Part shown: positions 6,341 through 53,113 of the stretch, in pieces
Numbering within the stretch: position 1 is the stretch's first letter
How the letters are laid out: the number at the start of each line of letters is the position of its first letter
From: an uncultured Actinomycetes bacterium
GTDB lineage: Bacteria > Actinomycetota > UBA4738 > HRBIN12
Direction: 5' to 3'
DNA length: 64,000 nt
Assembly: GCA_963704725.1 (NCBI GenBank)
Contig: OY969934.1
Coordinates: 1,685,138-1,749,137 of the forward strand
Notes under the pieces: model-generated
The model's database searches: none
What the model was told of the DNA's origin: nothing
The model's input: only the letters and a program-made list of their open reading frames with translations
Translations under genes and position numbers: made by a program

Positions 6341-6348
6341 ACCTCGCG

Positions 6349-14327: not shown

Positions 14328-14380
14328 CCTAGCATCGGGGTTGCGCTTCCCGACGACGCGCCGTTGGATACGCTCCGCGC

Positions 14381-15259
14381 ATGCGGGAGGGGACCCGGAG
14401 GGACCGCGCGCTCGCGCTCATCGAGGAGCTCTCATCCGACGGCCGCCGCCCGCTCGACCCCGGCGATCGCCTGGCCGACGTCGGGTTCGACTCCCTCGCG
14501 TTCGCCGAGCTGGCCGTGGCCCTGGAGCGCGAGACCGGCGTCGATCTCACTCCCGCCCGGATCGGCCACGACGACCGTGTCGCCGACGTCCTTCGGGCGG
14601 TCGAGTCCTCGGCGCCGCGACGCACGCCTCCCGCGCTGCCGCGCGGCATCGGGCGTGCGCAGCCGTTCTCGAAGACGGTGGGCGGACCGGTCCTGCGGTG
14701 GTGGTTCCGTCTGCGGGTCGTGGGGGCGCAGCGCCTCCCGAGCACCGGACCCTGCGTGCTGGCCATGAACCACGAGAGCGCCATGGACATCCCGATCATC
14801 GTCGCGGCGTGCCCCCGCCCGATCACGTTCATGGCGAAGAGGGAGCTGTTCAGGAACCCGGTCGTGTCCGCGACCCTCCTCGCGCTCGGCGGGTTCCGCG
14901 TGGACCGGGACCGGTTCGACCTGCCGGCCGTCGGGTCGGCGCTCGCCGCGCTCTCCAGAGGCGACGTGCTCGGGATGTACCCGGAGGGGACCCGGTCGCC
15001 GGGCGAGCTCCGGCCGTTCCTGCACGGGGCGGCCTGGGTAGCGCTGCGGACGGGCGCTCCGCTCGTTCCCTGCTCGATCGCCGGGACCGAGCACGCCGGC
15101 CGGGCCTCACTTCCCGGCCGCGTCCGTGTTCGCGTCGAGTTCCACCATCCGATCGCCGTCGAGCCCGTCGAGGACCCTCTCGAGCGCCGGCTTCGAGCCG
15201 AGGCGCTCACCGCCGAGCTGCGAACCGCGGTCGAGAAGGGATACGCGGTCCCGCGGTGA
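14381..15259 (+). CDS. acyl-carrier-protein-like domain fused to 1-acyl-sn-glycerol-3-phosphate acyltransferase (PlsC-like)
   Basis: N-terminal phosphopantetheine-site-like GFDSLAFAEL; then acyltransferase motifs NHESAMD (HX4D) and YPEGTRS. Confidence 0.8.
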   Translation: MREGTRRDRALALIEELSSDGRRPLDPGDRLADVGFDSLAFAELAVALERETGVDLTPARIGHDDRVADVLRAVESSAPRRTPPALPRGIGRAQPFSKTVGGPVLRWWFRLRVVGAQRLPSTGPCVLAMNHESAMDIPIIVAACPRPITFMAKRELFRNPVVSATLLALGGFRVDRDRFDLPAVGSALAALSRGDVLGMYPEGTRSPGELRPFLHGAAWVALRTGAPLVPCSIAGTEHAGRASLPGRVRVRVEFHHPIAVEPVEDPLERRLRAEALTAELRTAVEKGYAVPR

Positions 15260-15287
15260 TGCCCCTCTCGCGGCGGACGCTCCTCGC

Positions 15288-16613
15288 TCAGGAGAAGCAG
15301 TCCGTGCGAAGCGGCAGGGGATCGGGAGGACGCGGTCGCATCGAGAAGTCGAAGTCGTAGGAGAGATCGGTCGCCGCTCGGTCGCGGTGCGTGAGCTGCG
15401 ACAGTCCCCATGCGCGTTCGACGAAGCGAAGCACGCTCGAGAACTCGCCCCGTCGGTGGTCGACCACGCCGGGCCTCGCGTAGGGGGAGATGACGAGGAG
15501 CGGGACGCGGATCCCGAGTCCGAAGCCGTCCACCTGCGGCGGGGGCACGTGATCGTAGAAGCCCCCGTAGTCGTCCCACGTCACGAAGATCGCGGTATCC
15601 CGCCACATGGGGCTGCGCATGATCGCGTCGATCACGCGCGTGGACCAGTTCTCGCCGAGGCAGAAGCTGTACTGCGGGTGCTCGGACACCTCGTATCGCG
15701 GCGCGATCCACGTGACGGGCGGCAGGCGGTCGGCTCGGATGTCGGCGAGCAGGTCGTCCACGGGCAGCACGTGACGCGACCATTGGTTCGTCTCCCGGAT
15801 GTGCCGGATCGCCGAGTACGCGGACCAGATGTAGCCGAGCTGGTCGGGCTGGGCCGCGTAGTAGGCCCAGTCGATCCCCGCACTCGACAGGAGGTCGCCC
15901 TCGGTCGGGAAGTCGAAGCAGGGCGGCACCTGCTTCTCGTGGCCCTCGGAATCCACGACGGTCACCGTCTGGCCGGCCGGCGCGTCGCAGCCGAACGTGT
16001 TGCTCGAACGGAACGCTCCGGTCCGCCGCGGGTTGTCGTGGGCGCCACCGGACTGCGCGGCGATGGCGTAGAGGTGGTTGGGGAACGAGGGTCCCTGGGC
16101 GGAGGAGAAGAAGTTGTCGGCCAGCACGAACTCCCGGGCCCAGTGCCAGTAGTTCGGCAGCTGGGGCCGGCGGAGCTGCGTGTATGCCCACCGGTCGGAG
16201 ACGGCGCCCTGGTTGAACCCGTCCATCTCCCCGTGGTTCCAGGCCGCGAGCGAGCACGTGTAGCAATGGGGGATGTCCTCGGAGCCGATGCTCCCGTCCG
16301 TTCCGGGCGCGAGCGGACGTCGGACGCCGTGGTCCAGGCCGGACGTGGCGCCGTCCGCCCCGGGGAAGGTCCCGAACAGGTTGTCGAACGTGCGGTTCTC
16401 CTTGATCAGGAAGACCACGTGCTCGATCGGCCAGGGGGCCTCGCGCCGGCTCGGTTGTTCGGACGGCCCCGGGGAGAGCGCGGACGGAGGGAGGGTAGGC
16501 CGCGCGTGGCCGGGGGCCGCCGGTGCGGCGCTCTCACACGCCGCGGCGACGAGGGCCAGCGCGACGGCGCTCGCGACGGCCGCGCGGCGAGACGATGAGC
16601 GGTGCCTCCCCAT
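15288..16613 (-). CDS. phosphoesterase-family protein (phospholipase C / acid phosphatase type), secreted lipoprotein
   Basis: 441 aa; signal peptide with RR and lipobox-like LVAAAC; family-typical [14 protein letters not shown]. Its 5' end overlaps the upstream ORF by about 80 nt. Confidence 0.8.
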
Positions 16614-16824
16614 CGCGATTCAGACTCGGCGAGGCCCAGGAGCGTTCCGAATGACCGTGGGAGCCGCCCGCGTGCATCCCGAGCATCATCAACGGGCACG
16701 CCAGGGCGATCCCGAGGACGACGAGGCTCTGCACGGGCACGTGGAAGATTGCGACGGCGGCGAAGGCTCCGAGGGCCGCGAGCACGGCGACGAGTCGGAG
16801 GCGAGCCCCGTTTACGCCGCTCAT
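16534..16824 (-). CDS. small membrane protein, DUF2933-like (His-rich tail)
   Basis: In-frame part of track ORF 16534..17082, starting [19 protein letters not shown]; [16 protein letters not shown] resembles the DUF2933 signature (recollection). Start overlaps the SHOCT gene stop (ATGA). Confidence 0.45.
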
Positions 16825-17093
16825 CGATCCCTCTCCTCCGGCGTCGCGCGCGGGTCCTTCCCGGAACGGAGCACCCTTCGGCGCTCGATGAGCTCCTGCT
16901 CGGAGATCTCGCCGCGTGCGAACCGCTCCTCGAGGATGCGTTCGGGATCCGGGCCGTGCGCCTGCGGCGAGGATCCCTCCGGTGGCCGGCGATCGGACCA
17001 TCGAACGATCCACACGACGATGCCGACCAGGAGCGCCCACGACGCGACCATCCAGAGCAGGCCCCACCCACCGTCGTGCCACCCGTACGGCAT
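16821..17093 (-). CDS. SHOCT-domain small membrane protein
   Basis: 90 aa, C-terminal part of track ORF 16821..17609, starting MPYGWHDGGWGLLWMVASWALLVGIVVWIV; C-terminal ILEERFARGEISEQELIERRRVL matches the SHOCT pattern. Confidence 0.6.
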   Translation of the reverse strand: MPYGWHDGGWGLLWMVASWALLVGIVVWIVRWSDRRPPEGSSPQAHGPDPERILEERFARGEISEQELIERRRVLRSGKDPRATPEERDR

Positions 17094-17104
17094 CACCGGG
17101 GTTC

Positions 17105-17467
17105 TCAGCTGCCCGTCGGGTGATGGTCGGCGTGCGATCCCCAGGGTCCGGCGGAGCCCGTCCACGGCGCCGTGCCGCCCATCATGCCGCCCATGCCCGA
17201 GGTCCCCTCCATCATCTGCGACATCTGCTCGTGCAGGGCGTCGCACTGGGCCGCGAGCTCGGCCGGCATCTGGTCGTGGAGCTGCCGCATCGCGGCCGAG
17301 TCGTGCATCGCGTCCATCGTCGCGGTCGACGGGGTGCCGTCCATCATCGACCCCATCGATCCCGGCCCGCCTCCGGTCGTCCACCCCGTGGATCCGTGGG
17401 CGAACCCGAGCGTCAGGGCGAGCACGAAGCCGAGCGCCGCCCCGAGCACGATCCATCGTCCCTTCAT
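17105..17467 (-). CDS. secreted Met/His-rich protein, putative periplasmic copper-binding protein
   Basis: 120 aa; signal peptide, then MxxM / MxxH-rich sequence (MDAMHDSAAMRQLHDQM, HEQMSQMMEG, GMGGMMGG) and a His-rich C-terminus. Start overlaps the upstream kinase stop. Confidence 0.6.
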   Translation of the reverse strand: MKGRWIVLGAALGFVLALTLGFAHGSTGWTTGGGPGSMGSMMDGTPSTATMDAMHDSAAMRQLHDQMPAELAAQCDALHEQMSQMMEGTSGMGGMMGGTAPWTGSAGPWGSHADHHPTGS

Positions 17468-18891
17468 CGTGAACCTCCTTGTTCTGCCCCGACCGTAGCC
17501 GGGGGCGATGAAGGCTCGATGAAGGCGCCGCGCGGGTGCGATGAGGGGCCGGGAAGCCGCACGGTGAAGGTGGTGCCGTGGCCGAGCTCGCTGGCGGCGA
17601 CCAGCTCACCCCCGTGGGCGAGCACGAGCTCCCGGGCCACGGTCAGGCCGATGCCGGAGCCTCGGGCGCGAACCCCGCTGCCCCGGAAGAACCGGTCGAA
17701 GACCCTGGGGAGCTCGTCGGGAGAGATCCCGGGTCCGGTGTCGGAGACGGCGATCACGGCGTCGTCCCCGTCGCGGCGAAGACTGAGGCGCACCTCGCCC
17801 TTCTCAGGGGTGAACTTGAGGGCGTTCGAGAGGAGGTTCGCGATCATCTGGCGGATCCGGGTGGCATCGGCCGGGATCTCGACGTCCTCGAGCTCGCCGG
17901 ACAGGCGGACGTCGCCCGCCTCGAAGGGCCCCTCGAACTCCCTCATCGCGTCCTCGATCACGTCTCGCAGCCGCGTCGACGTCCGGTTGAGCGAGAACCC
18001 GGCCGCATCTGCCGAGGCCAGCGTCTCCAGGTCTCCGACGAGCCGGGTCAGGCGGAGCGACTCCTCGTGCAGGGACGCGATGGCGGGGGAGCTGGGCTCG
18101 ACGACGCCGTCCTGGATCCCCTCGATCTGCGTGCGAAGGATCGCGAGCGGGGTGCGCAGCTCGTGCGCGACCTCCGCCGCGAACGCGCGCCGGAGCCGAT
18201 CCTCCTCCTCGATCGTGTCGGCCATCGAGTTGAAGGCCCTGGCCATCTCCCCGAGCTCGTCCGGTGAGTCGTCGTCCACCCGCTGCGATCGCTCGCCGCT
18301 CGCCATGGCCCGGGCCGCTCGGGTGAGCTCGCGGGCCGGCGCCGTGGCCTTGCGCGCGAGCACGAGTCCCGCGGCCAGGGCCGCGAGCGCCGCCGCGACG
18401 CCGCCGACGAGGAGCATGTGGTTGACCGACGACCGGAAGGCCAGATCCTGGGGGAGCAACCCGGGGGTGGGGAGCCGGACGAGCGCGGTCCCCACGACCA
18501 CTCCGTCGACGCTGATCGGCAGCCGACGGGTGGGCCCAAGCGGCCCGCTCCCCATCATCTGGCGGTGCATCGCCGAGACGCGTCCGCCCTCACCCGCGGA
18601 TGGCTCCCAGACGGCGATCCCGTCGGCATCGAGGAGTCGCAGGGTGCCGCCGTCCATCATGGCGAGCGACTCCAGCGTGCGAAGGTCGGTGGCGTTCCAG
18701 CCCCCCATGCGCTCGTACGAGTCGGCCAGCCCGGCGACCAGCTGCTCCTGCCGCGCGCGTTGCTGGTCCTCGAGATAGGAGGAGAACCGGCTTTCGAAGG
18801 AGACGTTGACGAGGATCGCCGTGAGCGCCGCCGCCGCGATCCCGACGCCCGTGAACGCCGCGGCGAGGCGGAGCGCGAACGACCTACGCAT
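17464..18891 (-). CDS. sensor histidine kinase (TM-HAMP-HisKA-HATPase_c), putative metal-responsive
   Basis: Track ORF 17464..18996; start taken at MRRSFALRLAAAFTG (18891). H-box AEVAHELRTPL; C-terminal GSGIGLTVARELV. Confidence 0.85.
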   Translation of the reverse strand: MRRSFALRLAAAFTGVGIAAAALTAILVNVSFESRFSSYLEDQQRARQEQLVAGLADSYERMGGWNATDLRTLESLAMMDGGTLRLLDADGIAVWEPSAGEGGRVSAMHRQMMGSGPLGPTRRLPISVDGVVVGTALVRLPTPGLLPQDLAFRSSVNHMLLVGGVAAALAALAAGLVLARKATAPARELTRAARAMASGERSQRVDDDSPDELGEMARAFNSMADTIEEEDRLRRAFAAEVAHELRTPLAILRTQIEGIQDGVVEPSSPAIASLHEESLRLTRLVGDLETLASADAAGFSLNRTSTRLRDVIEDAMREFEGPFEAGDVRLSGELEDVEIPADATRIRQMIANLLSNALKFTPEKGEVRLSLRRDGDDAVIAVSDTGPGISPDELPRVFDRFFRGSGVRARGSGIGLTVARELVLAHGGELVAASELGHGTTFTVRLPGPSSHPRGAFIEPSSPPATVGAEQGGSR

Positions 18892-19582
18892 CGGCCCTGG
18901 GGCCGAACTTGTAGCCGACGCCCGGGACCGTGAGGACGAATCGAGGCTCCTTCGGATCGTCGCCCAGCTTGCGCCGGAGGTTCTTGACGTGAGCATCGAT
19001 GGTGCGCTCGTACCCCTCGTAGTCGTACCCCTGCACCTTGGTGACGAGCTCGTAGCGTGAGAACGCCCTGCCGGGATGAGCGGCCAGCGCCAGGAGCAGG
19101 TCGAACTCGCTCCGGGTGAGGTCGGCGGGCCTGCCGTCGACCGAAACCTCCCGACCGACCCGATCGATCACGAGCGCGCCGGATGCGAACGACGCGGGGC
19201 GGTCCTCTCTGCTCCCGCCCGCGCGCCGGAGCACGGCCTCCACCCTGGCGACGAGCTCACGTGGGCTGAAGGGCTTGACGAGATAGTCGTCCGCGCCCAG
19301 TCGCAGCCCGTTCACGCGGTCGTCCTCCGAGGACTTAGCGGTGAGCATGATGACCGGGAGATCGGAATGAGCCCGGATCGACCGTGCGACCTCCTCGCCG
19401 GCGATGTCCGGAAGCATGAGGTCGAGCACGAGCAGGTCGGGATGGGCTCGCTCCACCGCCTCGAGCGCCCGCGCGCCCGTGTCGGCGACGAGGACGGAGT
19501 ACCCCTCGCGCTCCAGGTATGAGCGGACGAGCTCCCGGATCTTCCGCTCGTCGTCCGCGACGACGATCGTGGCCGTTCCCAT
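18884..19582 (-). CDS. OmpR-family response regulator
   Basis: Track ORF 18884..19708; start taken at MGTATIVVADDE (19582). Receiver domain plus C-terminal winged-helix (VLTVPGVGYKF). Confidence 0.9.
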   Translation of the reverse strand: MGTATIVVADDERKIRELVRSYLEREGYSVLVADTGARALEAVERAHPDLLVLDLMLPDIAGEEVARSIRAHSDLPVIMLTAKSSEDDRVNGLRLGADDYLVKPFSPRELVARVEAVLRRAGGSREDRPASFASGALVIDRVGREVSVDGRPADLTRSEFDLLLALAAHPGRAFSRYELVTKVQGYDYEGYERTIDAHVKNLRRKLGDDPKEPRFVLTVPGVGYKFGPRADA

Positions 19583-19685
19583 GGTCGGCACCTCATCGGT
19601 CTGTCGTGACGTCTCAGGGTGCGGCCCTGCTCCCGGACCCTTCAGGGCCGGCAGGCCCCGGCGGCGGGGGTCGATCGGCCCGGCC

Positions 19686-20351
19686 TCAGTCGAGTTCCGG
19701 GAGCGCATCGAGCAGGTCCCTCGCCGACACGAACATCGACGGGTACTCCTGCGTCCAGCGGATCCGTCCCGCGGCGTCGACGAGCACGAAGCCGTGGCCC
19801 GGGAGGTTGGCGTGCATGCCGTGGCCGATCATCCCGTACGCCTGGGAGACCGAGGTGTCGGCATCGCTCAGGTACGGCGTTGTGATGCCGAAGCGCTGGA
19901 GCTCGGGCACAACGTCGCTCACTGGGTTCGCCACGATCGGGACGACCTCGATCCCCGCGGCGGCGAATCCGTCGGCGTCCTTCTCGATCTCGGTCATCTG
20001 GTAGAAGCACGCGTCGCAGCCGACTCCCTCGTTGAAGTACAGGAGCACGTTGCGTCCCAGGAAGCTCGAGATCGACACGCTCGTCCCCGACGTGGACGGA
20101 AGCGTGAACGCCGGAGCGGCCCCTTGGGCCCCTCCCGCCGGGGCCTGGCGCCCGCCGAAGTACAGCATCAGCCCCAGGGCCGCGATCGCGGCGACACCGA
20201 CGAGCGGACCGAAGGGGCTGCGCTTACGCGCGACCCCCCGGGATCGCCTCCTCCGCGTGCCGGCCGGTCTCTGCCCGGGGTGCGTGGCAGTGGGCTTCGC
20301 TCGATGGGGGGGTTCCCAGCGGGCTCGCTTCCCCTTCGTCTTGGTGGTCAT
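19686..20351 (-). CDS. membrane-anchored thioredoxin-like / redoxin protein (TlpA/ResA-like)
   Basis: Track ORF 19686..20447; start taken at MTTKTKGKRA (20351). One TM helix, then thioredoxin fold with GCDAC motif. Overlaps the 3' end of the CcdA ORF by about 128 nt. Confidence 0.7.
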   Translation of the reverse strand: MTTKTKGKRARWEPPHRAKPTATHPGQRPAGTRRRRSRGVARKRSPFGPLVGVAAIAALGLMLYFGGRQAPAGGAQGAAPAFTLPSTSGTSVSISSFLGRNVLLYFNEGVGCDACFYQMTEIEKDADGFAAAGIEVVPIVANPVSDVVPELQRFGITTPYLSDADTSVSQAYGMIGHGMHANLPGHGFVLVDAAGRIRWTQEYPSMFVSARDLLDALPELD

Positions 20352-21231
20352 GATCGGGTCCTCCTGAGGGTTCGGCGGAGCGGTGTCGGAGCGCGACGGC
20401 CATGAAGGCGCCGGCCAGTGCGAGCAGGCCGAGGCCGAGGACCGCATCGGGGACGGGGTCGAGGAACCTGACGACCCGGACGGACTCCGACGACAGCCAG
20501 CGGCCGATGGCGAGCTGGAACCCCGGCGCCACGGTCGTGTCGCCCCGGACGGCGATGAAGAGCACGAAGAAGCCCATCGCGGCGAAGGCCGCGGCGACCG
20601 CGATGTTCACGGTGTTCGTGGCGACCCGGACCGGTCCGAGCCGGATCGCGACCGGCTTGGCCCGGAACAGGCGCCGCTCGCCGAGCTTGAGGCGGTCCCA
20701 GAACAGCGCCATGAGGAGCAGTGGGAAGACCATCCCGAACACGTAGGCCGCACCGAGCGTCGTCGCTCCGATCAGCGAGCCGGAGAGCGCCGACAGGGTC
20801 ATGACCCCGGCGAGCACAGGAGCGCAGCACGACGAGGCCACGCCGGAGAAGACGCCGAGGGCGTAGACGCCGGCCGCGTCGGTCCGGCGGACGGAGGGCG
20901 CGCGGATGAAGGACGGGAGGCTCCAGGTGTGCCCGGAGAAGGCGAGCGCGGCGAGCGCGAGCATCAGGATTCCGCCGCCGAGGAAGAAGCCGAGGTGGTA
21001 CCGGGCGAGCGTCGTCGAGACGAACCCGATGCCGAGGGTCACGGGCAGCAGCACGGTCCCGATCCCGAGGGCGAAGACGAACGTGAGCGGCAGCAGGCGC
21101 CACCGCCGCGCCTGGACCGCGGAGGCCAGGTACGCCGGAAAGAGGAACACGATGCAGCACGGGCTGAACAGCGCGATGCCGCCCGCGAAGAACGCGGCGA
21201 GGATCGATCCGGTCGTGAGCAGACCGCCCAT
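20224..21231 (-). CDS. ccdA: cytochrome c biogenesis / thiol-disulfide transporter CcdA (DsbD-like)
   Basis: Track ORF 20224..21459; start taken at MGGLLTTGSILAAFF (21231). Polytopic, with conserved Cys in FSPCCIVFLFPAYL and SSCCAPVLAGV. Confidence 0.8.
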   Translation of the reverse strand: MGGLLTTGSILAAFFAGGIALFSPCCIVFLFPAYLASAVQARRWRLLPLTFVFALGIGTVLLPVTLGIGFVSTTLARYHLGFFLGGGILMLALAALAFSGHTWSLPSFIRAPSVRRTDAAGVYALGVFSGVASSCCAPVLAGVMTLSALSGSLIGATTLGAAYVFGMVFPLLLMALFWDRLKLGERRLFRAKPVAIRLGPVRVATNTVNIAVAAAFAAMGFFVLFIAVRGDTTVAPGFQLAIGRWLSSESVRVVRFLDPVPDAVLGLGLLALAGAFMAVALRHRSAEPSGGPDHDHQDEGEASPLGTPPSSEAHCHAPRAETGRHAEEAIPGGRA

Positions 21232-21491
21232 CAGATCCGCTCGACCGTTCGCTCGAGCACCTTCCGGAGCTTCTTCGCGGGAAGCCGTCCCGAGCTGAAC
21301 GGGGTCCCGTCCACGAGCACGAGCGGCCACATCCCCGGCCGGTGCCGCTCCACGAGCTCGAGCCCGTCTTGCGATGCCGCATCGAGCTCCCGGACCCGCA
21401 GTGGGAACTCGGCCCCGAGCTCCGCCAGTCGGGCCCGAGCGTCGGCGCAGAAGTGGCATCCGAGCGCGGTCACGAGCACCACGTCGGTCAT
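21231..21491 (-). CDS. glutaredoxin-like small thioredoxin-fold protein
   Basis: 86 aa, C-terminal part of track ORF 21231..22346, starting MTDVVLVTALGCHFCADARA (CxxC). Translationally coupled to ccdA (overlapping stop/start). Confidence 0.7.
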   Translation of the reverse strand: MTDVVLVTALGCHFCADARARLAELGAEFPLRVRELDAASQDGLELVERHRPGMWPLVLVDGTPFSSGRLPAKKLRKVLERTVERI

Positions 21492-21742
21492 CGGCGCGAT
21501 CCGCGGACCCAGGCGTCGGGGGACGGTCGCCGGATGCGGTAGGGCATCCACAGCAGGAGCGGGAACCACAGCAGCAGGCCCGCGAGCAGGAACGACACGA
21601 GCGGTGCCCCCAGGACGATCGCGGCGAGGAGCCCGCTGCCGATCCCGCTCATGACGGCCACGGCGAGCACACGGGTCGAACGCCAGCCGCTTGGGCGGGC
21701 GCCGGCCCGGAGATCGTGCCGGATGGCTCGAAGCTCTCTCAT
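21488..21742 (-). CDS. small membrane protein, function unknown
   Basis: Track ORF of 84 aa with two hydrophobic helices; stop overlaps the glutaredoxin-like start. Start uncertain (internal Met possible). Confidence 0.4.
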   Translation of the reverse strand: MRELRAIRHDLRAGARPSGWRSTRVLAVAVMSGIGSGLLAAIVLGAPLVSFLLAGLLLWFPLLLWMPYRIRRPSPDAWVRGSRR

Positions 21743-21831
21743 CGGTGACCAGCTTCGGTTCCGGCTGTGAAGGAGCGGTGAAGCGAGGGCGAAAGCCGGA
21801 TGAGGAGGTCCGAGGGTGCCGGCCCGTTTGC

Positions 21832-21856
21832 TTAGGATACCCCCCTATGGTATGCT
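21832..21856. promoter_or_regulatory. CsoR-operator-like inverted repeat overlapping a promoter-like element
   Basis: TTAGGATACCCCCCTATGGTATGCT: ATACC and GGTAT arms flank a C-tract, the architecture of CsoR/RcnR operators; about 35 nt upstream of the csoR start and followed by an AAAGGAG RBS. Confidence 0.4.
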
Positions 21857-21890
21857 GCTCGGGCAGGTGCCCACGAAAGGAGCGTCCGCC

Positions 21891-22166
21891 GTGGCCGGGT
21901 ACAGCATGAACAAGAAGGACCTCCAGGATCGCCTGCGGCGGATCGAGGGGCAGATCCGGGGTCTCCAGCGGATGGTGGAGGCCGACCAGTACTGCATCGA
22001 CATCCTGACCCAGGTGAACTCGGCAACGGCGGCACTCAAGTCGGTCGGCATGGGGCTCCTCGACGACCACGTGCGCCACTGCGTGAAGGAGAGCATCGAG
22101 GCCGGCAGGAGCGACGAGAAGGTCGAGGAGCTGCTGGCCGCGGTGGCTCGGTTCGCGGGGAAGTGA
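21891..22166 (+). CDS. csoR: CsoR/RcnR-family metal-sensing transcriptional repressor
   Basis: Track ORF 21816..22166; start taken at GTG 21891 (about 8 nt after GGAG), ATG 21906 is the alternative. Candidate C-H-C ligand set (YCID...DDHVRHC). Confidence 0.85.
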
Positions 22167-24322
22167 CGGAGATGGCCGAGACCACGATCGGCGACGACGT
22201 CCGCGAGCTCCGGCTCGACGTTCTCGGTATGACCTGCGGCTCCTGCGCCGCGCGGGTCGAGAAGACCCTGAACAAACAGGCGGGCGTGGAGGCGTCCGTG
22301 AACTTCGCGACGGGGGAGGCGCTCGTCCGTCTCTCGAACGGTGCACCCACCTTCGACCTACTTCGCGAGGCGGTGCGGGCTCGCGGGTACGACGTGCGCG
22401 AGCATGTCGACGAGGCCGAGGAGGCCGCTCGACGTGACGAGCGGGCCTGGCTGCGGCGCCTGGTCATCGCCTGGCCCCTCGCCATCGTCACGATGGCCAT
22501 CTCGATCCCCTTCATGGAGCAGACGTGGGCCCGGTGGACCGCGCTCGCGCTGGCCGCGCCGGTGCAGTTCTACGCGGGCTGGCCCTTCCTGAAGGGGGCG
22601 GCCATCCGCGCACGGAACTTCAGCGCCAACATGGACACGCTGATCGCGGTGGGCACGCTCGCCGCGTTCGCGTACTCGGTGTGGGCCCTGTTCGGCACCG
22701 AGGACCTGTACTTCGACACCTCGGCGGTGATCGTCGCCTTCATCGCGCTCGGCCGGTGGCTCGAAGCGCGGGCGAAGGGCCGGGCGTCGCAGGCCATCAA
22801 GCGGCTGCTCGAGATGGGGGCCAAGGAGGCTCGCGTCCTGCGCGACGACAAGGAGCTCCGGCTGCCGGTCGACGCCGTCAAGGTGGGGTGGCTCGTGAAA
22901 GTCCTTCCGGGCGAGAAGATCCCGGTGGACGGCCGCGTCGTCGACGGGGCCTCGGCGGTGGACGAGTCGATGCTCACCGGCGAGTCGGTGCCGGTCGAGA
23001 AGACCACCGGCGACGACGTGGCCGGGGCGACCGTCAACCTCGACGGCGTGATGGTGATCGAGGCGACGCGCGTCGGGCAGGACACGGCGCTCGCGCAGAT
23101 CGCCCGGCTCGTCGCCGAGGCGCAGGGCTCGAAGGCGCCGATCCAGCGCCTGGCCGACCAGGTGGCGGGGATCTTCGTCCCCGTCGTCATCGCGATCGCC
23201 GCGGTCACCGCGGTGGGGTGGTACCTGGTGGACGGGACCGTGCGCGACGCGCTCGTGCCCGCCGTCGCCGTCCTCATCATCGCGTGCCCCTGCGCGCTCG
23301 GGCTGGCCACGCCGGCCGCGCTGATGGTCGGCACGGGGCGGGGAGCTCAGCTCGGAGTCCTGATCCGGGGCGCCGAGGTCCTCGAGCGCTCGCGCAAGGT
23401 GGACACGATCGTCTTCGACAAGACCGGGACGCTCACCGAGGGCCGGATGCGGCTGGTCGAGACGGCCGGCTGCGTCGAGACCCTGGAGCGTGCGGCCGCC
23501 GTCGAGGCCGGGAGCGAGCACCCCATCGCCCGCGCGGTCGTCGAGGGCGCCGCCCGGCGCGGGGTCGTCGTTCCGGCCGCAGAGGGTTTCCGCTCGATCG
23601 CGGGTCGCGGTGCCCGGGCGACCGTGGACGGGCACGAGGTTCTGGTGGGGCGACGTTCGCTGCTCGAGTCCGAGGGACTGCACGTCCCGCCGTCGATCGA
23701 GCGCTACGCCGGAGGGTTCGAGGCCCAGGGTCACACGGTGTTCTGGGTCGGGTGGGGCGGCGAGGCGGCCGGGGTCGTCGCGGTCGCCGACACCCTGAAG
23801 GAGGGCGCGAACGAGGCGGTCACCCGGTTGCACGGGCTCGGCGTCCGCGTCGCGATGATCACCGGCGACAACCGCACCACCGCCGAGGCGATCGCGTCGC
23901 AGGTGGGCATCGATCGGGTCCTGGCCGAGGTGCACCCCGAGGACAAGGTCGAGGAGATCCGCCGGCTCCAGGGCGAGGGGCACGTCGTCGCCATGGTCGG
24001 CGACGGGATCAACGACGGGCCCGCGCTCGCTCAGGCCGACCTGGGCATCGCCATCGGTACCGGCACGGACGTCGCGATCGAGGCGAGCGACATCACGCTC
24101 ATCTCCGGGGACCTGGACGGCGTCGTGCGCGCCGTCGAGCTCTCGCGGACGACGTTCCGGACGATCCAACAGAACCTGGCCTGGGCGTTCGGCTACAACG
24201 TGGCCGCGATCCCGCTCGCCGCGTTCGGGCTGTTGAACCCCATCATCGCCGGGGCGGCGATGGCGGCCTCGTCGGTGTCCGTGCTGACGAACTCGTTGCG
24301 GTTGCGGCGGTTCGGGAGATGA
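22163..24322 (+). CDS. copA: copper-translocating P1B-type ATPase
   Basis: 719 aa; HMA domain [14 protein letters not shown] motif CPC ([13 protein letters not shown]), [17 protein letters not shown]. Start overlaps the csoR stop. Confidence 0.95.
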
Positions 24323-26739
24323 GGCACCCCACGGATCACCACGGGCCGGCGACGGTGGTTCTCCACGTCGGCGGGCTCAACTGGGCCTCCCAGAAGGGCG
24401 TGGCAGAGACCGTCCTCAGGCGCCGGCCCGGCGTGACCTCCGTCGACGCGAACCCCGTGGCTCAGACCGCCACCGTCACCTTCGACCCGGCACGAACGTC
24501 CGTGGCGGACCTTCAACGGTGGTTGCGGGAGTGCGGGCTCCAGTGCGCCGGGCAGTCGGTCCCCACGCACCTCTGCGACCCCATGGCGGAGCCGGTCACC
24601 GGAGACGAGAGCCGCGAGACCGCGATGGAGCACGGAGGCCACGAGATGGCGACGGATGCCGGCCTTCGCTCGCCGCACGAGACGACGGGGCACGGCGGGG
24701 ACGCGGGGATGTCGATGGAGCAGATGGTCCGTGACATGCGGAACCGGTTCGTGGTCGCGGCCGTGCTGTCGGTCCCGATCCTGCTGTGGTCGCCGATCGG
24801 GCGGGACGTCATCGGCTTCCACGCCGCAGCGCCCCTCGGCCTCTCGGATGCGTGGTTCCAGCTCCTGCTGAGCCTGCCGGTCGTCTTCTATTCGGGGTGG
24901 ATCTTCTTCGACGGCGCGTACCAGGCCCTGCGACACGGAACGCTCGACATGATGGTGCTGGTCGCGGTGGCGATCGGGGCGGGGTGGTCGTACTCGGTGG
25001 TCGCGACGATCGCCGGAGGCGAGGAGGTGTTCTTCGAGGCCGCCGCGGTGCTGGCCGCGTTCGTGCTCCTGGGGCACTGGTTCGAGATGCGGGCCCGCGG
25101 CGGTGCGAACGACGCGATCCGCACGCTGCTCGATCTCGCGCCGGCGATGGCGGTGGTGCTCCGTGAGGGCGAGCCCGTCGAGATCCCGACGGCCGAGGTG
25201 GTCGTGGGTGATCTCCTCCTGGTCCGGCCGGGGAGCAAGATCGCGGTCGACGGGGTCGTCGAGGAAGGGGAGACCGACGTCGACGAGTCCATGGTCACCG
25301 GCGAGAGCTTGCCGGTTCACAAGACATCCGGATCCGGGGTCATCGGCGCGACGATCAACCGGAACGGAACGATGCGCGTGCGCGCCACGAAGATCGGGGC
25401 CGACACGGCCCTGGCCCAGATCGTGAAGCTCGTCCAGGAGGCCCAGAACTCCAAGGCGCCCGGACAGCGGCTCGCCGACCGGGCGGCCTTCTGGCTCGTC
25501 CTGGTCGCGCTGATCGGCGGCACCGGGACCCTCCTGGCATGGCTCGCCGCCGGCCGCCCGCTGGACGAGGCCATCCTGTTCGCCATCACCGTGGTCGTCA
25601 TCACGTGTCCGGACGCGCTCGGCCTGGCCACTCCCACGGCGATCATGGTCGGCACCGGTCTCGGCGCCGCCCGGGGCATCCTGTTCAAGAACGCGGTGGC
25701 GCTGGAGGAGAGCGCCCGGATCCAGGTCGTCGTCGTGGACAAGACCGGGACCCTGACCAAGGGGGAGCCGGAGGTCACGGACGTGATCGCCGAAGGCCTC
25801 CCGGACGATGACCTCCTCCGCCTCGTGGCCGCGGTCGAGCGGGAGTCCGAGCACCCGCTGGCCGAGGCGATCGTTCGCCACGCCGACGCCCTGGGGCTCC
25901 GGGCCGCCGGGGCCGAGGCGTTCGAGAACGTTCCCGGCCACGGCGCGTTTGCCACCGTCGAAGGGCGGCGCGTCGCCGTCGGGAACCGCAGGCTCATGGA
26001 GCGCGAGGGGATCGCCCTGGGGGCGCTGGAGGACCGCCGCCGGCAGCTCGCGGCGAACGGCAAGACCGCGGTGATCGCGGCGGTGGACGGCCGCGCGTGC
26101 GCGGTCATCGGCGTCGCCGACGCGGTCCGGCCGTCGTCCCGCGCCGCGGTGTCGGCGCTCGCCGAGACCGGGGTGGAGGTCGTCATGCTGACCGGTGACA
26201 ACGAGGCCACGGCCGCGCGGATCGCCCGAGAGCTCGGCATCGGCTCGGTCATCGCCGAGGTGCTCCCCGGCGACAAGGCGGCCAGGATCGCCGAGCTCCA
26301 GCGCGGCGGGCGCCGGGTGGCCATGGTCGGCGACGGCGTGAACGACGCGCCGGCGCTCGCGCAGGCCGACCTCGGCATCGCCATCGGCGCCGGGACGGAC
26401 GTCGCGATCGAGACGGCGGACGTGGTCCTGATGCGCTCCGACCCGCTCGACGTGGCGACGGCGCTGCGGATCGGGCGAGGGACGCTCCGGAAGATGCGGC
26501 AGAACCTGGGCTGGGCCGTGGGCTACAACGCCATCGCCCTGCCCATCGCGGCGGGGGTCTTCGAGCCCGCCTTCGGGCTCACGCTGCGCCCGGAGATCGC
26601 CGCCCTCTCGATGTCGGGCTCGAGCCTGATCGTGGCCGTGAACGCGCTCGCGCTGCGGAGACTCCGACTGCCCCGCGCGGTGGGTGATGGGGGCGAGACG
26701 GCCCCGGCGACGGTGGAGCTCGTGGAGCGGGCGGCGTGA
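24319..26739 (+). CDS. second heavy-metal P1B-type ATPase (CopB-like) with CPD motif and Cys-less HMA-like N-terminus
   Basis: In-frame C-terminal 806 aa of track ORF 22525..26739; ATG at 24319 overlaps the copA stop (ATGA). DKTGTLT and [10 protein letters not shown] present; ion-path motif reads [12 protein letters not shown]; N-terminal [13 protein letters not shown] is an HMA fold without the CxxC; His/Met-rich linker. Confidence 0.85.
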
Positions 26740-26810
26740 GCGCCGAGGAATCCCGAGCGCTCCCTCGGGTGTTGGCAAGGGGGGGAACGTGGCGAACGTG
26801 AGTACTCTGA

Positions 26811-27641
26811 GTGGAGGAACGGATGAACCGAGCAGATGAGATGACCGAGATGCGAGTGCCCGAACCCGTCGTGATCGAGGCGACCGATCAGAACTTCATG
26901 GACACGGTCGTCGAGGAGTCCAAGCGCCGACCCGTCGTGGTCGACCTGTGGGCGACCTGGTGCGGTCCGTGCCGCACCCTCGGGCCGATGCTGGAGAAGG
27001 TGGCCGGCGAGCGCGGCGGGGACTTCCTCCTGGCCAAGCTCGACGTCGATGCCAACCCCTACACGGCCGGACAGTTCGGGGTGCAGAGCATCCCGACCGT
27101 CGTCGGCTTCAAGGACGGGCGGCCGGTGGACGGGTTCGTCGGCGCGATCCCGGAGGCCATGATCAACGAGTTCGTCGACCGCCTCCTGCCCACGGTGGCG
27201 GATCTCGGCGCGCAGCAGGGACTGGAGCGCGAGCTGGACGGGGACCTGCCCGACGCCGAGAAGACCTACCGGGACGCGCTCGAGACCGACGCCGGCAACC
27301 GGGAGGCGAGGCTCGGCCTCGGCCGCGTCCTGGCGGAGACCGGTCGGGAGGACGAGGCGCGGGAGACCCTGATGCCCCTGCTGCCCGACCCCGACGCCGA
27401 GCGCGTGCTGGCCGAGCTCGAGGTCCGCTCCTGGGCGGAGCTCTCGGAGCCCGGGACGCTCGCCAGCGCCAAACGGCTCGCCGCACAGGGCCGGTTCCGC
27501 GAGGCGCTCGACGGCATGCTCGGGTCGCTCTCGGACGACCCGGACGCGCGCCCGGCCGTGCTCGACGTGTTCGCGATCCTTGGGGACGAGGACCCCCTCG
27601 TGACCGAGTACCGGCGCAAGCTGGCGAACGCGCTGTTCTGA
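26811..27641 (+). CDS. thioredoxin-domain protein with C-terminal TPR-like region (YbbN-like)
   Basis: 276 aa; WCGPC active site followed by a helical repeat region. Confidence 0.8.
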   Translation: MEERMNRADEMTEMRVPEPVVIEATDQNFMDTVVEESKRRPVVVDLWATWCGPCRTLGPMLEKVAGERGGDFLLAKLDVDANPYTAGQFGVQSIPTVVGFKDGRPVDGFVGAIPEAMINEFVDRLLPTVADLGAQQGLERELDGDLPDAEKTYRDALETDAGNREARLGLGRVLAETGREDEARETLMPLLPDPDAERVLAELEVRSWAELSEPGTLASAKRLAAQGRFREALDGMLGSLSDDPDARPAVLDVFAILGDEDPLVTEYRRKLANALF

Positions 27642-28434: not shown

Positions 28435-30402
28435 TCAGCGCGCCGGCACCGCGATCGTGACGTGCACCGGTAGGTGATCGGACGCCTGCACCGTCCCGAT
28501 CCGAAAGCCCAGGATCTCGATGTCCGGCGTGACGAAGAGCCACGAGACACGGTCGCAGGTGGAGGTCGGTTCCGCGGAGGTCGTGCGGCATGGATCGCCG
28601 GTCGCGTCCTCGGCGTCGACCAGGCCGGCGCTCGTGAAGCGCAGGACGTCCGCCGTGTCGGTGGGCTGCATGTTGAGGTCGCCGGCGATGATCGCCGGCT
28701 CGAACCCGTCCCATGCGTCCAACAGGGCCTCGATCTGCTCGGGCCGGTCTCCCTCCAGGTGGGCGTCGACCACGAGGAGCGTGCCCGCGGATCCGAGATC
28801 GAGCCGGACGGCAAGGTAGCTCCGACGCTGCTTCCCAGGCACGTCGGGGAGAGGCCCTGCGGAGACGAGGGTCATCGGCAGTCGCGACAGGATGACGTTG
28901 CCGAACTGTCCGTCGGCGGCTGGCTCGTACCGGTACGGCATGTCGAGTCGCTGCTGGATGCGCGCCAGGACGTCGCCGCCGCCGAAGATCGGCCATCCTC
29001 GGGCGACCTCCTGCAGGACGACCACGTCGGGGTTCGACGAGGCGATCGCCCGAGCCACGTCGTCGGGGTCGAGCTGTCCCCGGACGTTCACGGAGCCCCG
29101 GATGTTGTACTGGACCACGCGAACCTCTCGACGCTGCAACGCGGCCGGGTCGGCGGAAGGCCGGTCCACCCACAGCCAGCCACCGAGCACGATCGCCGCG
29201 GCGGCGACGATGGCCGCCGCGGCGAGGGCGAAGCGAGGGTCGGCGCCCGTGACGATCGCGTTCCCGGATGCCCACCGGCGCACGAGGGCGACGAGCAGGG
29301 CGAGCGCCGCGACCGCGGGAAGGATCTCGCGGGGGAACGGGAGCGGGGTGTCGATGTCGAGCTGCCACAGCAGCACCAACAGGACGAACGACATGCTGGC
29401 GCCCCACACACCGAGCATCGCTCGCCGAGTCCCGCCTCCGGTCGTTGCGATCGACTCCGCAATGACCACCGTGACGAGAGGCTGGAGCACCACCACGACC
29501 GCGATCGCCGGCGCCCCGCTCGAGGCGGTGAGGAACCAGGCGAGCGGTACGCCCAGGGCCGCGACGAACGCGAGGAGGGATCGGGGGATCGTGCCGCGAG
29601 ACAGAAGCGTGAGGGCCGCGAGGGCGAGGGCATCCGCCCCGAGCACGACGAACGTGGCCGCCGCGAAGCCCACCCGCCCCTGCGATGCCACGTAGCCGAG
29701 GTTCTGCAGGAACAGCAGCTGCAGCATCAGGTACGGGCCGAGCGTGACGGGGGCGAGGCCCCCCGTCTCGTGGACGCCGGCCGGTGCGCGCCGGATCCAT
29801 CGGAGCAGCACGACCGTGGCGACGGCGACGAGAAGGAGGCTGAGCGTCATCGCTCCCGGGCCCCCCTGCCACGCGAGATCCCAGGAGCGGTACGGCGCTC
29901 GCAGGGCGGAGTCGAGTGCGAGCCCCGCCACGACGCCGGTCGCCAGCGCGCGCGGCCTCTCACGAAGGGCGCCGACACACAGCGCCGCCCCGACCAGCGT
30001 CACGGCGGTCCCCGCCATCGCCAGCCACGTGGGGATCGGATGCACGAGCTGCACCGCCAGCCGGGCCATCACGATGGCGCCCGCGCCGGCCACGACCCGG
30101 CCCCGGAGATCGAGTCGCACGAGCGCCAGCGCCATCACCGGCGCGGCATAGACGCCGATCGCGATCCCGCCGGCGAGGAGGAAGCTCCGATCCTCGCCCA
30201 GCAGGTACATGAGCGGGAACATCGTCCTCGCAACCTGCGCCGCGGCGGCGACTAGGATGGCGATCAGGACGATCGCCACTCGATCGGTACCCCCTCGCTC
30301 CTCTCCGGACGCCGAGCCCGTCGAACGGTGGCGAGGGAGGTCCTGGGTGCCGCGGAGCCGAGAGCGAACCCGCATCATGGCCCCCTTCGCCGGCGACGGC
30401 AT
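28435..30402 (-). CDS. polytopic membrane protein with C-terminal endonuclease/exonuclease/phosphatase (EEP) domain
   Basis: Track ORF 28435..30465; about 400 aa of TM helices then EEP-like region (VRVVQYNIRG...VVVLQEV...DHLPVHVTIAV). Start uncertain (Met at 30402 or 30378). Confidence 0.7.
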   Translation of the reverse strand: MPSPAKGAMMRVRSRLRGTQDLPRHRSTGSASGEERGGTDRVAIVLIAILVAAAAQVARTMFPLMYLLGEDRSFLLAGGIAIGVYAAPVMALALVRLDLRGRVVAGAGAIVMARLAVQLVHPIPTWLAMAGTAVTLVGAALCVGALRERPRALATGVVAGLALDSALRAPYRSWDLAWQGGPGAMTLSLLLVAVATVVLLRWIRRAPAGVHETGGLAPVTLGPYLMLQLLFLQNLGYVASQGRVGFAAATFVVLGADALALAALTLLSRGTIPRSLLAFVAALGVPLAWFLTASSGAPAIAVVVVLQPLVTVVIAESIATTGGGTRRAMLGVWGASMSFVLLVLLWQLDIDTPLPFPREILPAVAALALLVALVRRWASGNAIVTGADPRFALAAAAIVAAAAIVLGGWLWVDRPSADPAALQRREVRVVQYNIRGSVNVRGQLDPDDVARAIASSNPDVVVLQEVARGWPIFGGGDVLARIQQRLDMPYRYEPAADGQFGNVILSRLPMTLVSAGPLPDVPGKQRRSYLAVRLDLGSAGTLLVVDAHLEGDRPEQIEALLDAWDGFEPAIIAGDLNMQPTDTADVLRFTSAGLVDAEDATGDPCRTTSAEPTSTCDRVSWLFVTPDIEILGFRIGTVQASDHLPVHVTIAVPAR

Positions 30403-30464
30403 CCGCGTCCGAGGGCCCCGGTCAAAGGACGAAGGGCCCCTACGGACCCGGCCCCGGTGGCGCA

Positions 30465-31238
30465 CTACCGGCGAGCCGTCCAGAAGACGTCGGTGCGGTA
30501 CGGCATCACGATGGAGGCCGCGCCCGACAGGTCGGGATCCTTGTCGAGGAGCTCGTTCACCTCGACCACCACGCGCTCTCGCTCGTCCTCGGGGGCGCTC
30601 GCCACGTAGCTGACCGAGAGCACGCGATCCAGGAACGTGTCCCGGTCGACCTCGTGCACGTGATACGCCACCTGATGGTGCAGAGGGCCGAAGAGCTCGG
30701 TGCGTTCGAAGGCCGCGCGCCAGCGCAGGTCGCGGTATCGGGGACCGTCCCCTGCGAGCCGGTCGAAGATGGCGGTGATCCGCTCGGACCAGTCGGTGGC
30801 CTCGTCCCGGACGTTCCAGATGAGCCCCAGCCGGCCGCCGGGCCGCAACACGCGGTGAGCCTCGGCCAGGGCGCGATCGCCGTCGAACCAGTGGAACGCC
30901 TGAGCGGCGACCACCGCGTCCGCCGTGGCGTCGGGGACCGGCACGTCCTCGGCCGTGCCGTCCAGGATGGTGACGGCGGGGCAGTTCCCGGCCAGCGCCT
31001 CGCGCATGGCGGCGACCGGCTCGACCGCGGTGATCCGAGCCCCCGACGGCTCGAGGAGCCGTGTGAACTTGCCCGTCCCGGCGCCGAGCTCGAGGACGTC
31101 GCGCCCCGGTGCCAGGCCCAGCTCCCGGACGAGGTATTCCACGGCGTCGTCCGGATAGCTCGGCCGGGCCCGCTCGTACGGCTCGACGGCGGCCTCGAAC
31201 CCCCGCGCAGCGGCCTCGTGGATGCGATCCGGCGTCAC
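30465..31238 (-). CDS. class I SAM-dependent methyltransferase
   Basis: C-terminal 257 aa of track ORF 30465..31949; motif LELGAGTG; GTG start at 31238 overlaps the upstream aminotransferase stop (GTGA). The rest of the track ORF is Arg/Gly shadow. Confidence 0.8.
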   Translation of the reverse strand: MTPDRIHEAAARGFEAAVEPYERARPSYPDDAVEYLVRELGLAPGRDVLELGAGTGKFTRLLEPSGARITAVEPVAAMREALAGNCPAVTILDGTAEDVPVPDATADAVVAAQAFHWFDGDRALAEAHRVLRPGGRLGLIWNVRDEATDWSERITAIFDRLAGDGPRYRDLRWRAAFERTELFGPLHHQVAYHVHEVDRDTFLDRVLSVSYVASAPEDERERVVVEVNELLDKDPDLSGAASIVMPYRTDVFWTARR

Positions 31239-48098: not shown

Positions 48099-48130
48099 CA
48101 GCACCTCCTGGCTTGATCGCGGGGGAGCGT

Positions 48131-49321: not shown

Positions 49322-49361
49322 CGACTGTCCCCCCTCCCGAACGTACGTTCGAGATCGTAGC

Positions 49362-53111: not shown

Positions 53112-53113
53112 GC

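Follow-up and report, generated by a model that had tools for sequence, protein, structure and literature searches.

A probable copper-stress locus with two sensors at one divergent control region in an uncultured Actinomycetes bacterium

The DNA analysed here is a stretch of 64,000 nucleotides (nt) from an uncultured Actinomycetes bacterium (assembly GCA_963704725.1, contig OY969934.1, positions 1,685,138 to 1,749,137), hereafter called the window. Positions 16534-26739 of the window hold 13 intact genes in two units that diverge from 21743-21890, and these genes probably form a chromosomal copper-stress locus that is run by two sensors meeting at one divergent control region. The first sensor is the repressor CsoR, which is encoded together with the exporter CopA and a second metal-transporting ATPase, and the second is a two-component system that is treated here as CopRS-like. 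Though genuine, the locus is rather commonplace among copper-stress loci: it was put together step by step from known modules, and nothing in it upsets the accepted models of copper homeostasis. That copper is the signal is our inference, as are the way in which electrons flow, the substrates of the second pump and of the small proteins, and the limits of the operons.

Genes were called from the third-position GC content (GC3) in a window of about 71% GC throughout, starts and stops were checked codon by codon, and domains were named with Pfam and NCBIfam at their curated cut-offs. An independent assembly (run ERR11718635) contains the same DNA and yields essentially identical gene calls. The leftward unit (minus strand) starts with a small membrane protein of 84 residues (21488-21742), which has a hydrophobic segment, high GC3, and no match in Pfam or NCBIfam, and continues with a glutaredoxin-like (Grx-like) protein, a CcdA-like membrane protein, an anchored redoxin, an OmpR-type regulator, a sensor kinase, a Met/His-rich protein, a SHOCT-domain protein, and a DUF2933-like protein. 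The rightward unit (plus strand) consists of csoR, copA, and the gene of a second P1B ATPase with a CPD motif, after which a thioredoxin-TPR (Trx-TPR) gene is reached across a gap of 101 nt. Neighboring genes overlap by 1-8 nt at seven of the 11 junctions, and an eighth junction, between the ccdA-like gene and the redoxin gene, becomes an overlap of 128 nt when the redoxin is read with its membrane anchor; intergenic gaps are found at 19583-19685 and 26740-26840. An earlier interpretation of this DNA from its letters and open reading frames (the sequence-only reading) had listed the same gene content and had stated that overlapping stop and start codons link most of the genes. Both statements were borne out, the modules being supported by Pfam or NCBIfam matches with SHOCT and DUF2933 just under the cut-off. 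The division of the genes between two strands had gone unmentioned in that reading.

Two proposed copper sensors at one control region

The CsoR-CopA arm is the textbook part of the locus. CsoR (91 residues, 21891-22166, plus strand) is read from a GTG start that has GAAAGGAG 8 nt upstream and that aligns with the ATG of csoR in L083, the closest relative. It matches PF02583 (Trns_repr_metal) with 105.4 bits at a cut-off of 22.8, and its best match in the PDB is the CsoR of Streptomyces lividans (4ADZ), whose YC...H-x3-C ligands are kept (YCIDILTQV, HVRHC). Alignment to 4ADZ gives the Cu(I) ligand set x-C-H-C, as opposed to the sets of CstR, RcnR, or FrmR. An assignment to RicR, the mycobacterial paralogue of CsoR, was rejected, the score against NCBIfam NF052430 being 104.9 bits and thus below the cut-off of 175. 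The csoR promoter (21828-21856, plus strand) has a -35 element TTGCTT (21828-21833) and a -10 element TATGCT (21851-21856), between which lies the CsoR operator ATACCCCCCTATGGTAT (21837-21853). This operator is unique in the window, where 0.01 occurrences are expected, and the pattern TACCC-N5-GGGTA is kept upstream of csoR in L083, L020, L027, L029, L032, and L036. CsoR is accordingly annotated as a predicted Cu(I)-sensing repressor acting at its own promoter. CopA (719 residues, 22163-24322, plus strand) combines a CxxC-type HMA domain (GMTCGSC) with the CPC motif (ACPCALG), the YN motif (GYN), and MAASS, and scores 603 bits against TIGR01511 (cut-off 397), all of which marks it as a predicted P1B-1 Cu(I) exporter.

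This arm resembles the cso operon of Mycobacterium tuberculosis, the CsoR system of S. lividans (4ADZ), and the copZA operon of Bacillus subtilis in its Cys-His-Cys ligands and in a GC-rich pseudo-palindromic operator that overlaps the promoter, and csoR is likewise co-transcribed with a CPC-type CopA, as predicted for the window. It differs from them in that no CopZ chaperone gene is present, in that the CPD pump is joined to the operon by an ATGA overlap, and in that a CopR-type box is situated 53 nt upstream of the operator.

The second input is represented by an OmpR-family response regulator (232 residues, 18884-19582, minus strand; Response_reg and Trans_reg_C domains), which is 50.5% identical over 96% of its length to the CopR orthologue on pCETAM of Corynebacterium comes, 68% identical to the regulator of locus L119, and 49-50% identical to those of L020 and L032. 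The proven CopR site of Corynebacterium glutamicum is TGAAGATTTgaTGAAGATTT (PMC3140484). A repeat scan of the divergent region gave GCTGTGAAG and GCGGTGAAG with 11-bp spacing, and the core TGAAG-N6-TGAAG occurs twice in the 64 kb (0.01 expected), both times within the cluster. Box 1 (TGAAGGCTCGATGAAG, 17509-17524, plus strand) falls within the 3'-terminal part of the kinase gene, 42-57 nt upstream of the ATG of the Met/His gene; on the minus strand, the box is followed by 11 nt, TACGGT, AAGGAGG, and the ATG. Box 2 (TGAAGGAGCGGTGAAG, 21768-21783, plus strand) lies in the divergent control region and is followed on the minus strand by 11 nt, the hexamer GAAGCT (with A2 and T6), 8 nt, and the ATG at 21742.

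The association of box and two-component system was examined in 80 loci that were retrieved through the CPD pump. An exact box is present in seven of the eight loci with a homologous two-component system and in two of the 72 loci without one (Fisher p = 9e-8), and the eighth locus with the system, L010, has three one-mismatch boxes, all of them intergenic. Across the loci, boxes are found upstream of the regulator, SHOCT, the Grx module, csoR, and the CPD pump, the last at a distance of 150-190 nt in L024 and L010. Furthermore, pCETAM carries an exact box 63-78 nt upstream of copR. No box was found in the relatives lacking the two-component system (L083, L085, and L087), and box 2 falls within a segment that is missing from L083. 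It is because of these counts and associations, the identity to the CopR of pCETAM, and the boxless relatives without the system that the two-component system is treated as CopRS-like. At the level of sequence, the CopR box of Corynebacterium is conserved across several actinobacterial orders.

Related arrangements were observed elsewhere. A plasmid of Rubrobacter tropicus carries triple TGAAG repeats with 11-bp spacing (L123, 4889-4915 and 17120-17146). In two Nocardioides loci (L020 and L032) and a metagenome-assembled genome (MAG) of the Nocardioidaceae (L036), a CopR-type box precedes one or two CsoR operators at a distance of 23-24 nt, an arrangement that hints at a dual-input promoter in these three loci.

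The closest described counterpart of this second arm is the CopRS regulon of C. glutamicum (cg3281-cg3289; Schelder et al. 2011, PMC3140484) together with its copy on C. comes pCETAM. Here too, an OmpR-type regulator and a kinase are found in a divergent copper cluster, with the same direct-repeat box, the same TGAAG core, and the same 11-bp period. The window differs from both in several respects: it has no multicopper oxidase or CueP, its pump is of the CPD instead of the CPH type, its kinase has an unrelated loop of about 127 residues, its CcdA and redoxin are of another lineage, its control region is shared with a CsoR operator, and its Met/His-SHOCT-DUF2933 cassette has an internal box of its own.

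In the mechanism that we propose, CsoR would bind the TACCC-type operator through which it represses until Cu(I), bound by the Cys-His-Cys ligands, releases it and csoR, copA, and the CPD ATPase gene are transcribed. CopA (CPC type) would then pump Cu(I) out of the cell, and the CPD pump would act as a second exporter in the place held by CopB (CPH) in Corynebacterium. The CopRS-like kinase would sense copper outside the membrane and phosphorylate the OmpR-type regulator, which in turn would bind the TGAAG-N6-TGAAG boxes. Box 2 would drive the genes of the small membrane protein, the Grx-like protein, the CcdA-like protein, and the redoxin, then probably those of the regulator and the kinase themselves, and box 1 would drive the genes of the Met/His-rich, SHOCT, and DUF2933 proteins. 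The chain of Grx-like protein, CcdA-like protein, and redoxin would carry reducing power across the membrane and repair copper-damaged thiols or disulfides outside, as is done by the Scs proteins discussed below, and the Met/His/Cys-rich protein would bind or buffer Cu(I) outside or feed back on the kinase.

The redox module

The CcdA/DsbD-like membrane protein (335 residues, 20224-21231, minus strand) has about seven transmembrane (TM) segments and matches DsbD_TM with 28.2 bits (cut-off 27.1). It contains two vicinal Cys pairs (SPCC and SSCCAP) and a His/Asp-rich tail; it is 58% identical to the corresponding protein of L020, and the CC motifs are kept in its homologues on plasmids of Cellulomonas and Rubrobacter. 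The glutaredoxin-like protein (86 residues, 21231-21491, minus strand) has a C-H-F-C motif, neither a signal peptide nor a TM segment, and a Glrx-like match of 26.5 bits (cut-off 26). The third member is a membrane-anchored TlpA/ResA-like redoxin (221 residues, 19686-20351, minus strand; AhpC-TSA/Redoxin) with a C-D-A-C active site. The ATG at 20351 is the sole start with an AGGAGG Shine-Dalgarno sequence that keeps the anchor. A redoxin of 160 residues, from the start chosen by the automatic caller, was rejected, as its start lies within a hydrophobic helix and it would be left without a TM segment. With the ATG at 20351, the last 128 nt of the ccdA-like gene (20224-20351) are also the first 128 nt of the redoxin gene in a different frame, and GC3 is high in both frames there.

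In L020, L122, and L123, too, the CcdA-redoxin pair has a Grx gene beside it. The complete set of regulator, kinase, Grx, CcdA, and redoxin is found together in the nearly equivalent locus L020 of Nocardioides caricicola, on a Cellulomonas plasmid, and on the Rubrobacter plasmid, where it is accompanied by DUF2933. In L020, the redox module has its own box with the orientation and spacing of box 2 of the window. It was shown that tlpA of C. glutamicum is strongly induced by copper in a CopRS-dependent manner (PMC3140484). The redox module may be read as a copper-stress reductant export path that is Scs-like in function.

The Scs proteins of Salmonella, Proteus, and Caulobacter (PMC10907172; bioRxiv 10.64898/2026.05.22.727170) likewise form a copper-linked envelope thiol-reducing pathway. 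In both cases, a membrane carrier of the DsbD superfamily and thioredoxin-fold partners, one of which is membrane-bound, are encoded beside copper genes. The likeness is functional only: the carrier of the window is of the minimal CcdA type with a DsbD_TM core and not an ScsB with periplasmic domains, a TlpA-like redoxin and a Grx-like protein take the place of ScsC and ScsD as its partners, the host is of the Gram-positive type, and the predicted control is CopR-like.

It is rather unlikely, in our estimate, that the module instead serves copper use by providing reduced cysteines for cytochrome c maturation or for CuA/Sco-type copper insertion into cytochrome oxidase, a role that would account for its place next to the copper genes. 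This idea draws on the role of CcdA and ResA/TlpA, which classically form the reducing arm in system II cytochrome c maturation, on the gene order of pCETAM, where ResB and CcsB come after TlpA and CcdA, on the copper induction of ccsA and ccsB in C. glutamicum (PMC3140484), and on a faint SCO1-SenC match of the redoxin (E = 0.003). However, no ResB/CcsB or ResC/CcsA domain was found by Pfam in any gene of the cluster, which speaks against membership in system II, and the CcdA-like protein falls into a separate CcdA lineage with CC motifs. Moreover, the module pairs on plasmids with the two-component system, DUF2933, DUF305, and metal pumps, and it comes with a CopR-type box, which is its own in L020 and a shared one in the window. 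We therefore prefer a role in copper stress for the redox module.

The sensor kinase and the Met/His-SHOCT-DUF2933 cassette

The sensor histidine kinase (475 residues, 17464-18891, minus strand; HAMP, HisKA, and HATPase_c domains) has two TM segments that flank an outside loop of about 127 residues with a conserved AM-R-MMG-GPLGP motif. It aligns with the kinase of L119 at 48% identity without gaps, the loop and its motif included, and with the CopS of Corynebacterium at 37% over the cytoplasmic part only.

Next to it lies the gene of a Met/His-rich secreted or anchored protein (120 residues, 17105-17467, minus strand), which contains 14 Met, 7 His, and an N-terminal hydrophobic segment, and has no match in Pfam or NCBIfam. 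Homologues were recovered by a word search (17) and by a profile search of 1.84 billion entries (169 cluster representatives), and none of them is named. In this family, H55, M60, M67, C75, H79, and M82 are nearly invariant. An AlphaFold model of the protein has three short helices and a mean predicted local distance difference test score (pLDDT) of 61; Foldseek returned no match to the model, and no sequence in the PDB was matched even with a profile of 47 sequences. Filing the protein under any family, Metal_resist (PF13801) included, was rejected, a weak PF13801 match being found in only 4 of 47 members. These proteins form an undescribed small family, and we can only infer that the member in the window might bind Cu(I) outside the cytoplasm or might modulate the kinase.

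The gene of the SHOCT-domain membrane protein (90 residues, 16821-17093, minus strand; one TM segment, SHOCT 25.9 bits with a cut-off of 27) follows the Met/His gene in all four contigs with downstream sequence (the window, L118, L119, and L120). The DUF2933-like small membrane protein (96 residues, 16534-16824, minus strand; ATG and stop checked) scores 20.2 bits with a cut-off of 21 and has a C-P-L-M-M-x-x-M-H motif where its hydrophobic region ends. In L119 and L120, a 78-residue protein with CP(L/I)xMMxMH comes after SHOCT, and in L119, the orthologous regulator (68%) and kinase (48%) come next. The SHOCT protein is 60% identical to that of L118 and 38% identical to that of the Nocardia plasmid pNF1, whereas the DUF2933-like protein is 43% identical to the DUF2933 protein of pNF1 and 38% identical to the 78-residue protein of L119. 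Although both are sub-threshold in Pfam, they are thus homologous to RefSeq-annotated proteins on pNF1. Furthermore, the window, L119, and L118 have in common the layout CTTCA-N6-CTTCA, 11 nt, TAC(G/C)GT, about 10 nt, AAGGAG(G), 5-7 nt, and ATG before the Met/His gene, and this shared layout argues for a regulator-dependent internal promoter at that place. At the other end of the cassette, a neighboring phosphoesterase in its full-length form (441 residues, lipoprotein-like signal ...LVAAAC) would overlap the 3' end of the DUF2933 gene by 80 nt (16534-16613). A start that gives 376 residues would truncate the Pfam domain of this protein, so the 441-residue form is more likely.

Several points weigh against two copper sensors at one control region, and those concerning the kinase also feed the alternative that the two-component system and the Met/His cassette answer another signal (silver, zinc, or envelope/thiol stress) and are linked to copper by neighborhood only. 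The best NCBIfam match of the kinase is BaeS, and the proteobacterial heavy-metal kinase and regulator families (TIGR01386/TIGR01387) were rejected with 211 bits versus a cut-off of 292.55 and 155.3 bits versus 279.2. The 127-residue sensor loop is unrelated to the short CopS loop of Corynebacterium, so the signal could differ, and the weak Metal_resist matches in the Met/His family point the same way. On the other hand, the box matches the proven CopR box, and the neighbors of homologous systems include multicopper oxidases, CsoR, CopA, and CPD pumps, whose genes have boxes immediately in front of them. A Met cluster is kept in the sensor loop, and the regulated small proteins have conserved Met, His, and Cys residues. 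Another signal is for us an unlikely explanation.

The remaining reservations concern the control elements and the redox module. The candidate -10 element of the leftward unit (GAAGCT) is weak, and the rule by which a box is followed by 11 nt and NANNNT holds for only 6 of 18 boxes and was dropped as a general one. The gap between box 2 and the CsoR operator is 53 nt versus 23-24 nt in Nocardioides, which makes the effect of the box on the csoR promoter uncertain. The vicinal Cys pairs of the CcdA-like protein could mean metal transport and not electron transfer, and the CcdA-like protein and the redoxin are only distantly related to the CcdA and TlpA of Corynebacterium. A scan of 15-29 kb detected no terminators or consensus promoters, so the transcription units are guesses; z-scores were close to 0 when the three regions between or after the genes were folded, which leaves the operon ends undefined. 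Finally, the copper responsiveness of the locus is deduced from the homology of its proteins and operators.

The CPD-type ATPase

The second P1B ATPase (806 residues, 24319-26739, plus strand; E1-E2 ATPase and HMA domains) has CPD at TM4 as well as YN and MSGSS motifs. In its N-terminal part, an HMA-like domain without CxxC comes before C-x3-C-x9-C, after which a linker rich in His and Met is found. In the best 120 of 120 homologues, CPD and MSGSS are present together with the Cys motif. An assignment as a canonical P1B-3 CopB, which would have CPH, MSxST, and a poly-His N-terminus, was rejected, as the pump has CPD, MSGSS, and only four His in its linker; a true CopB with CPH and MSLST is found on pCETAM in the slot that the CPD pump holds here. 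Instead, the pump shows the features of the CPD subtype (CPD at TM4, YN(X)4P, MSGSS, and few N-terminal His), which was named by Cubillas et al. 2017 as cluster VIc of the P1B-3-like ATPases (PMC5552934). Its N-terminus alone matches 75 plasmids, including those of Xanthobacter Py2, Bradyrhizobium BTAi1, and Nitrobacter X14, and thereby recovers plasmids of the three alphaproteobacterial species named in that study. The actinobacterial branch, 72-81% identical within itself, differs from the proteobacterial members, to which it is 34-39% identical over the N-terminus, and has the invariant C-x3-C-x9-C. In the N-terminal stretch at 24319-24760, the sequence CG[LYF]HCAGQSVPxH[VIL]CD, which comprises this motif, is invariant in the best 120 of 120 homologues after the CxxC-less HMA-like fold. 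The motif may be an undescribed metal-binding site.

Among the matches listed, homologues of the CPD pump are 72-81% identical across genera and MAGs; they are 71-72% identical in MAGs of Candidatus Dormiibacterota and 71-73% identical on 42 actinobacterial plasmids. The CPD subtype is plasmid-borne in several phyla. No functional or biochemical study of it was found in the literature searched. The CPD pump of the window is most likely a copper exporter.

History of the slot

Relatives of the locus were found by using the Trx-TPR gene as a probe of metagenome contigs, and all window genes were mapped onto the matches. The backbone consists of E1-beta, E1-alpha, the slot with the copper genes, Trx-TPR, two methyltransferase genes, lipB, and E2, and is thus a lipoate/2-oxoacid dehydrogenase neighborhood. 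In ten distant relatives, the slot is empty, and some 200 nt separate E1-alpha from Trx-TPR. In L083, the closest relative (92% identity in E1-beta, 81% in Trx-TPR), and in L087, csoR-copA alone fills the slot, in L088 copA adjoins Trx-TPR, and in L085 copA and the CPD pump precede it; L084, whose contig ends early, has the 3' end of the CPD pump gene at this place. Variable presence among relatives, which the sequence-only reading had put forward as a comparison to make, was therefore found. The same reading had counted the Trx-TPR protein (26841-27641, plus strand; Thioredoxin and TPR domains) among the cluster members, and this had to be given up: the gene adjoins E1-alpha in the ten relatives without copper genes and is absent from all 80 CPD-pump loci. 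The YbbN/CnoX-like Trx-TPR is a housekeeping gene of the backbone and not cargo of the cluster.

DNA alignment with L083 shows two window-specific segments (14356-21834 and 24317-26864), and from 21835 on, 2 nt short of the CsoR operator, the two sequences are homologous again. At 1466-1648 of L083, a 31-residue remnant of an acyltransferase (carrier-protein-like domain; 16 of 31 residues identical) runs into the CsoR operator, from which it follows that at least part of the difference is a deletion in L083. On this sequence evidence, the difference seems to stem from a loss in L083 and not from a gain in the window.

The sequence-only reading had also raised the possibility of an acquired resistance island. 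That the whole 10-kb cluster is a recent island of this kind, received in one piece from a plasmid or an integrative element, is an explanation that we regard as quite improbable. Its appeal stems from the many relatives without the cluster and from the plasmids: the CPD pumps on the 42 actinobacterial plasmids have SHOCT, DUF2933, and two-component neighbors, and the two-component system and the redox module are plasmid-borne as well. The metal regions of Nocardia farcinica pNF1, Cellulomonas p110066, the R. tropicus plasmid, and Rhodococcus plasmids offer a matching list of parts, with the CPD pump, SHOCT, DUF2933, the set of regulator, kinase, Grx, CcdA, and redoxin, and CopR-type boxes in common. 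The genes of the window differ from these regions in being chromosomal, in their housekeeping neighborhood without mobility genes, and in their order and orientation. A tRNA scan of the window found none, no integrase or transposase was found among the neighbors scanned with Pfam, and GC and tetranucleotide tests showed no deviation for any segment, all values being within the spread of the window itself. With these hallmarks of a genomic island missing (flanking direct repeats were not searched for), the cluster does not appear to be a recently acquired island. Furthermore, csoR-copA occupies the same slot in relatives with 58-81% Trx-TPR identity, the CPD pump does so in two others, and the acyltransferase remnant fused to the CsoR operator in L083 points to a deletion there. 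Mobility of the modules therefore stands, as they do occur on actinobacterial plasmids, whereas their recent acquisition en bloc does not, and csoR-copA has long occupied the slot. The picture that we favor is of a single variable slot where modules were gained and lost one by one, the gains being drawn from a gene pool that plasmids carry as well.

Elsewhere, the individual modules also occur by themselves or in a different order, which agrees with the earlier view of one copper-linked locus assembled from separable modules. The clustering is more than chance, since sets of modules recur in independent genomes and plasmids and two cis-elements are present far above expectation. That the genes are mere chance neighbors that do not work together, for which the gaps at 19583-19685 and 26740-26840 could be cited, is very improbable given the overlapping codons that join most of the genes, the shared cis-elements, and the recurrence of the same combinations in unrelated genomes.

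Implications

The locus provides a testable wiring diagram in which cytoplasmic (CsoR) and envelope (CopRS-like) copper sensing might be coupled at one control region of a little-known actinobacterial lineage, and the conserved CopR box allows the prediction of regulons across several actinobacterial orders. Three uncharacterized and widespread players that travel on plasmids together with metal-resistance genes are brought into view, namely the CPD ATPase, the CC-motif CcdA with its Grx and redoxin, and the Met/His-SHOCT-DUF2933 cassette.

A more far-reaching possibility, to which we give tentative weight, is that the locus represents an undescribed actinobacterial envelope copper system, in which a CopR-like regulator with a new Met-rich sensor domain controls the cassette and the CC-motif CcdA, and in which the CPD ATPase is possibly a distinct P1B class. 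If this were true, the regulator would directly control the Met/His-SHOCT-DUF2933 cassette and a CcdA lineage through which electrons, or perhaps Cu(I), would cross the membrane. The CPD ATPase, with an Asp in TM4 and a Cys3 site replacing CxxC, would be a mechanistically distinct P1B class that has spread on plasmids across phyla, and in some genomes it would be under a promoter combining a CopR box with a CsoR operator.

Other features of the window

An Rfam scan of the window returned nothing inside the cluster and, elsewhere, only a class A RNase P RNA (5944-6341) and a cobalamin riboswitch (39140-39299) upstream of a Peripla_BP_2/FecCD/ABC transporter. Downstream of the slot, a membrane protein with an endonuclease/exonuclease/phosphatase domain (28435-30480) is an indel, as the methyltransferase genes that flank it adjoin each other in L084, L085, and L087.

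A lower-GC block of about 11.8 kb (47900-59600; GC 0.62-0.69) separates sufB (46409-47821) from a sufD-like gene (59629-60939) and encodes an HNH/DUF222 endonuclease, a ChlI-like fragment, the HsdM protein of a type I restriction-modification system, a PIN protein, and an HsdR that is fused to a C-terminal Schlafen AlbA_2 domain. This block looks like a defence island that splits the suf operon. Finally, a radical-SAM protein of 668 residues (2707-4713) has a LAGLIDADG_3 match at residues 276-347, and this segment may be an intein with a homing endonuclease.

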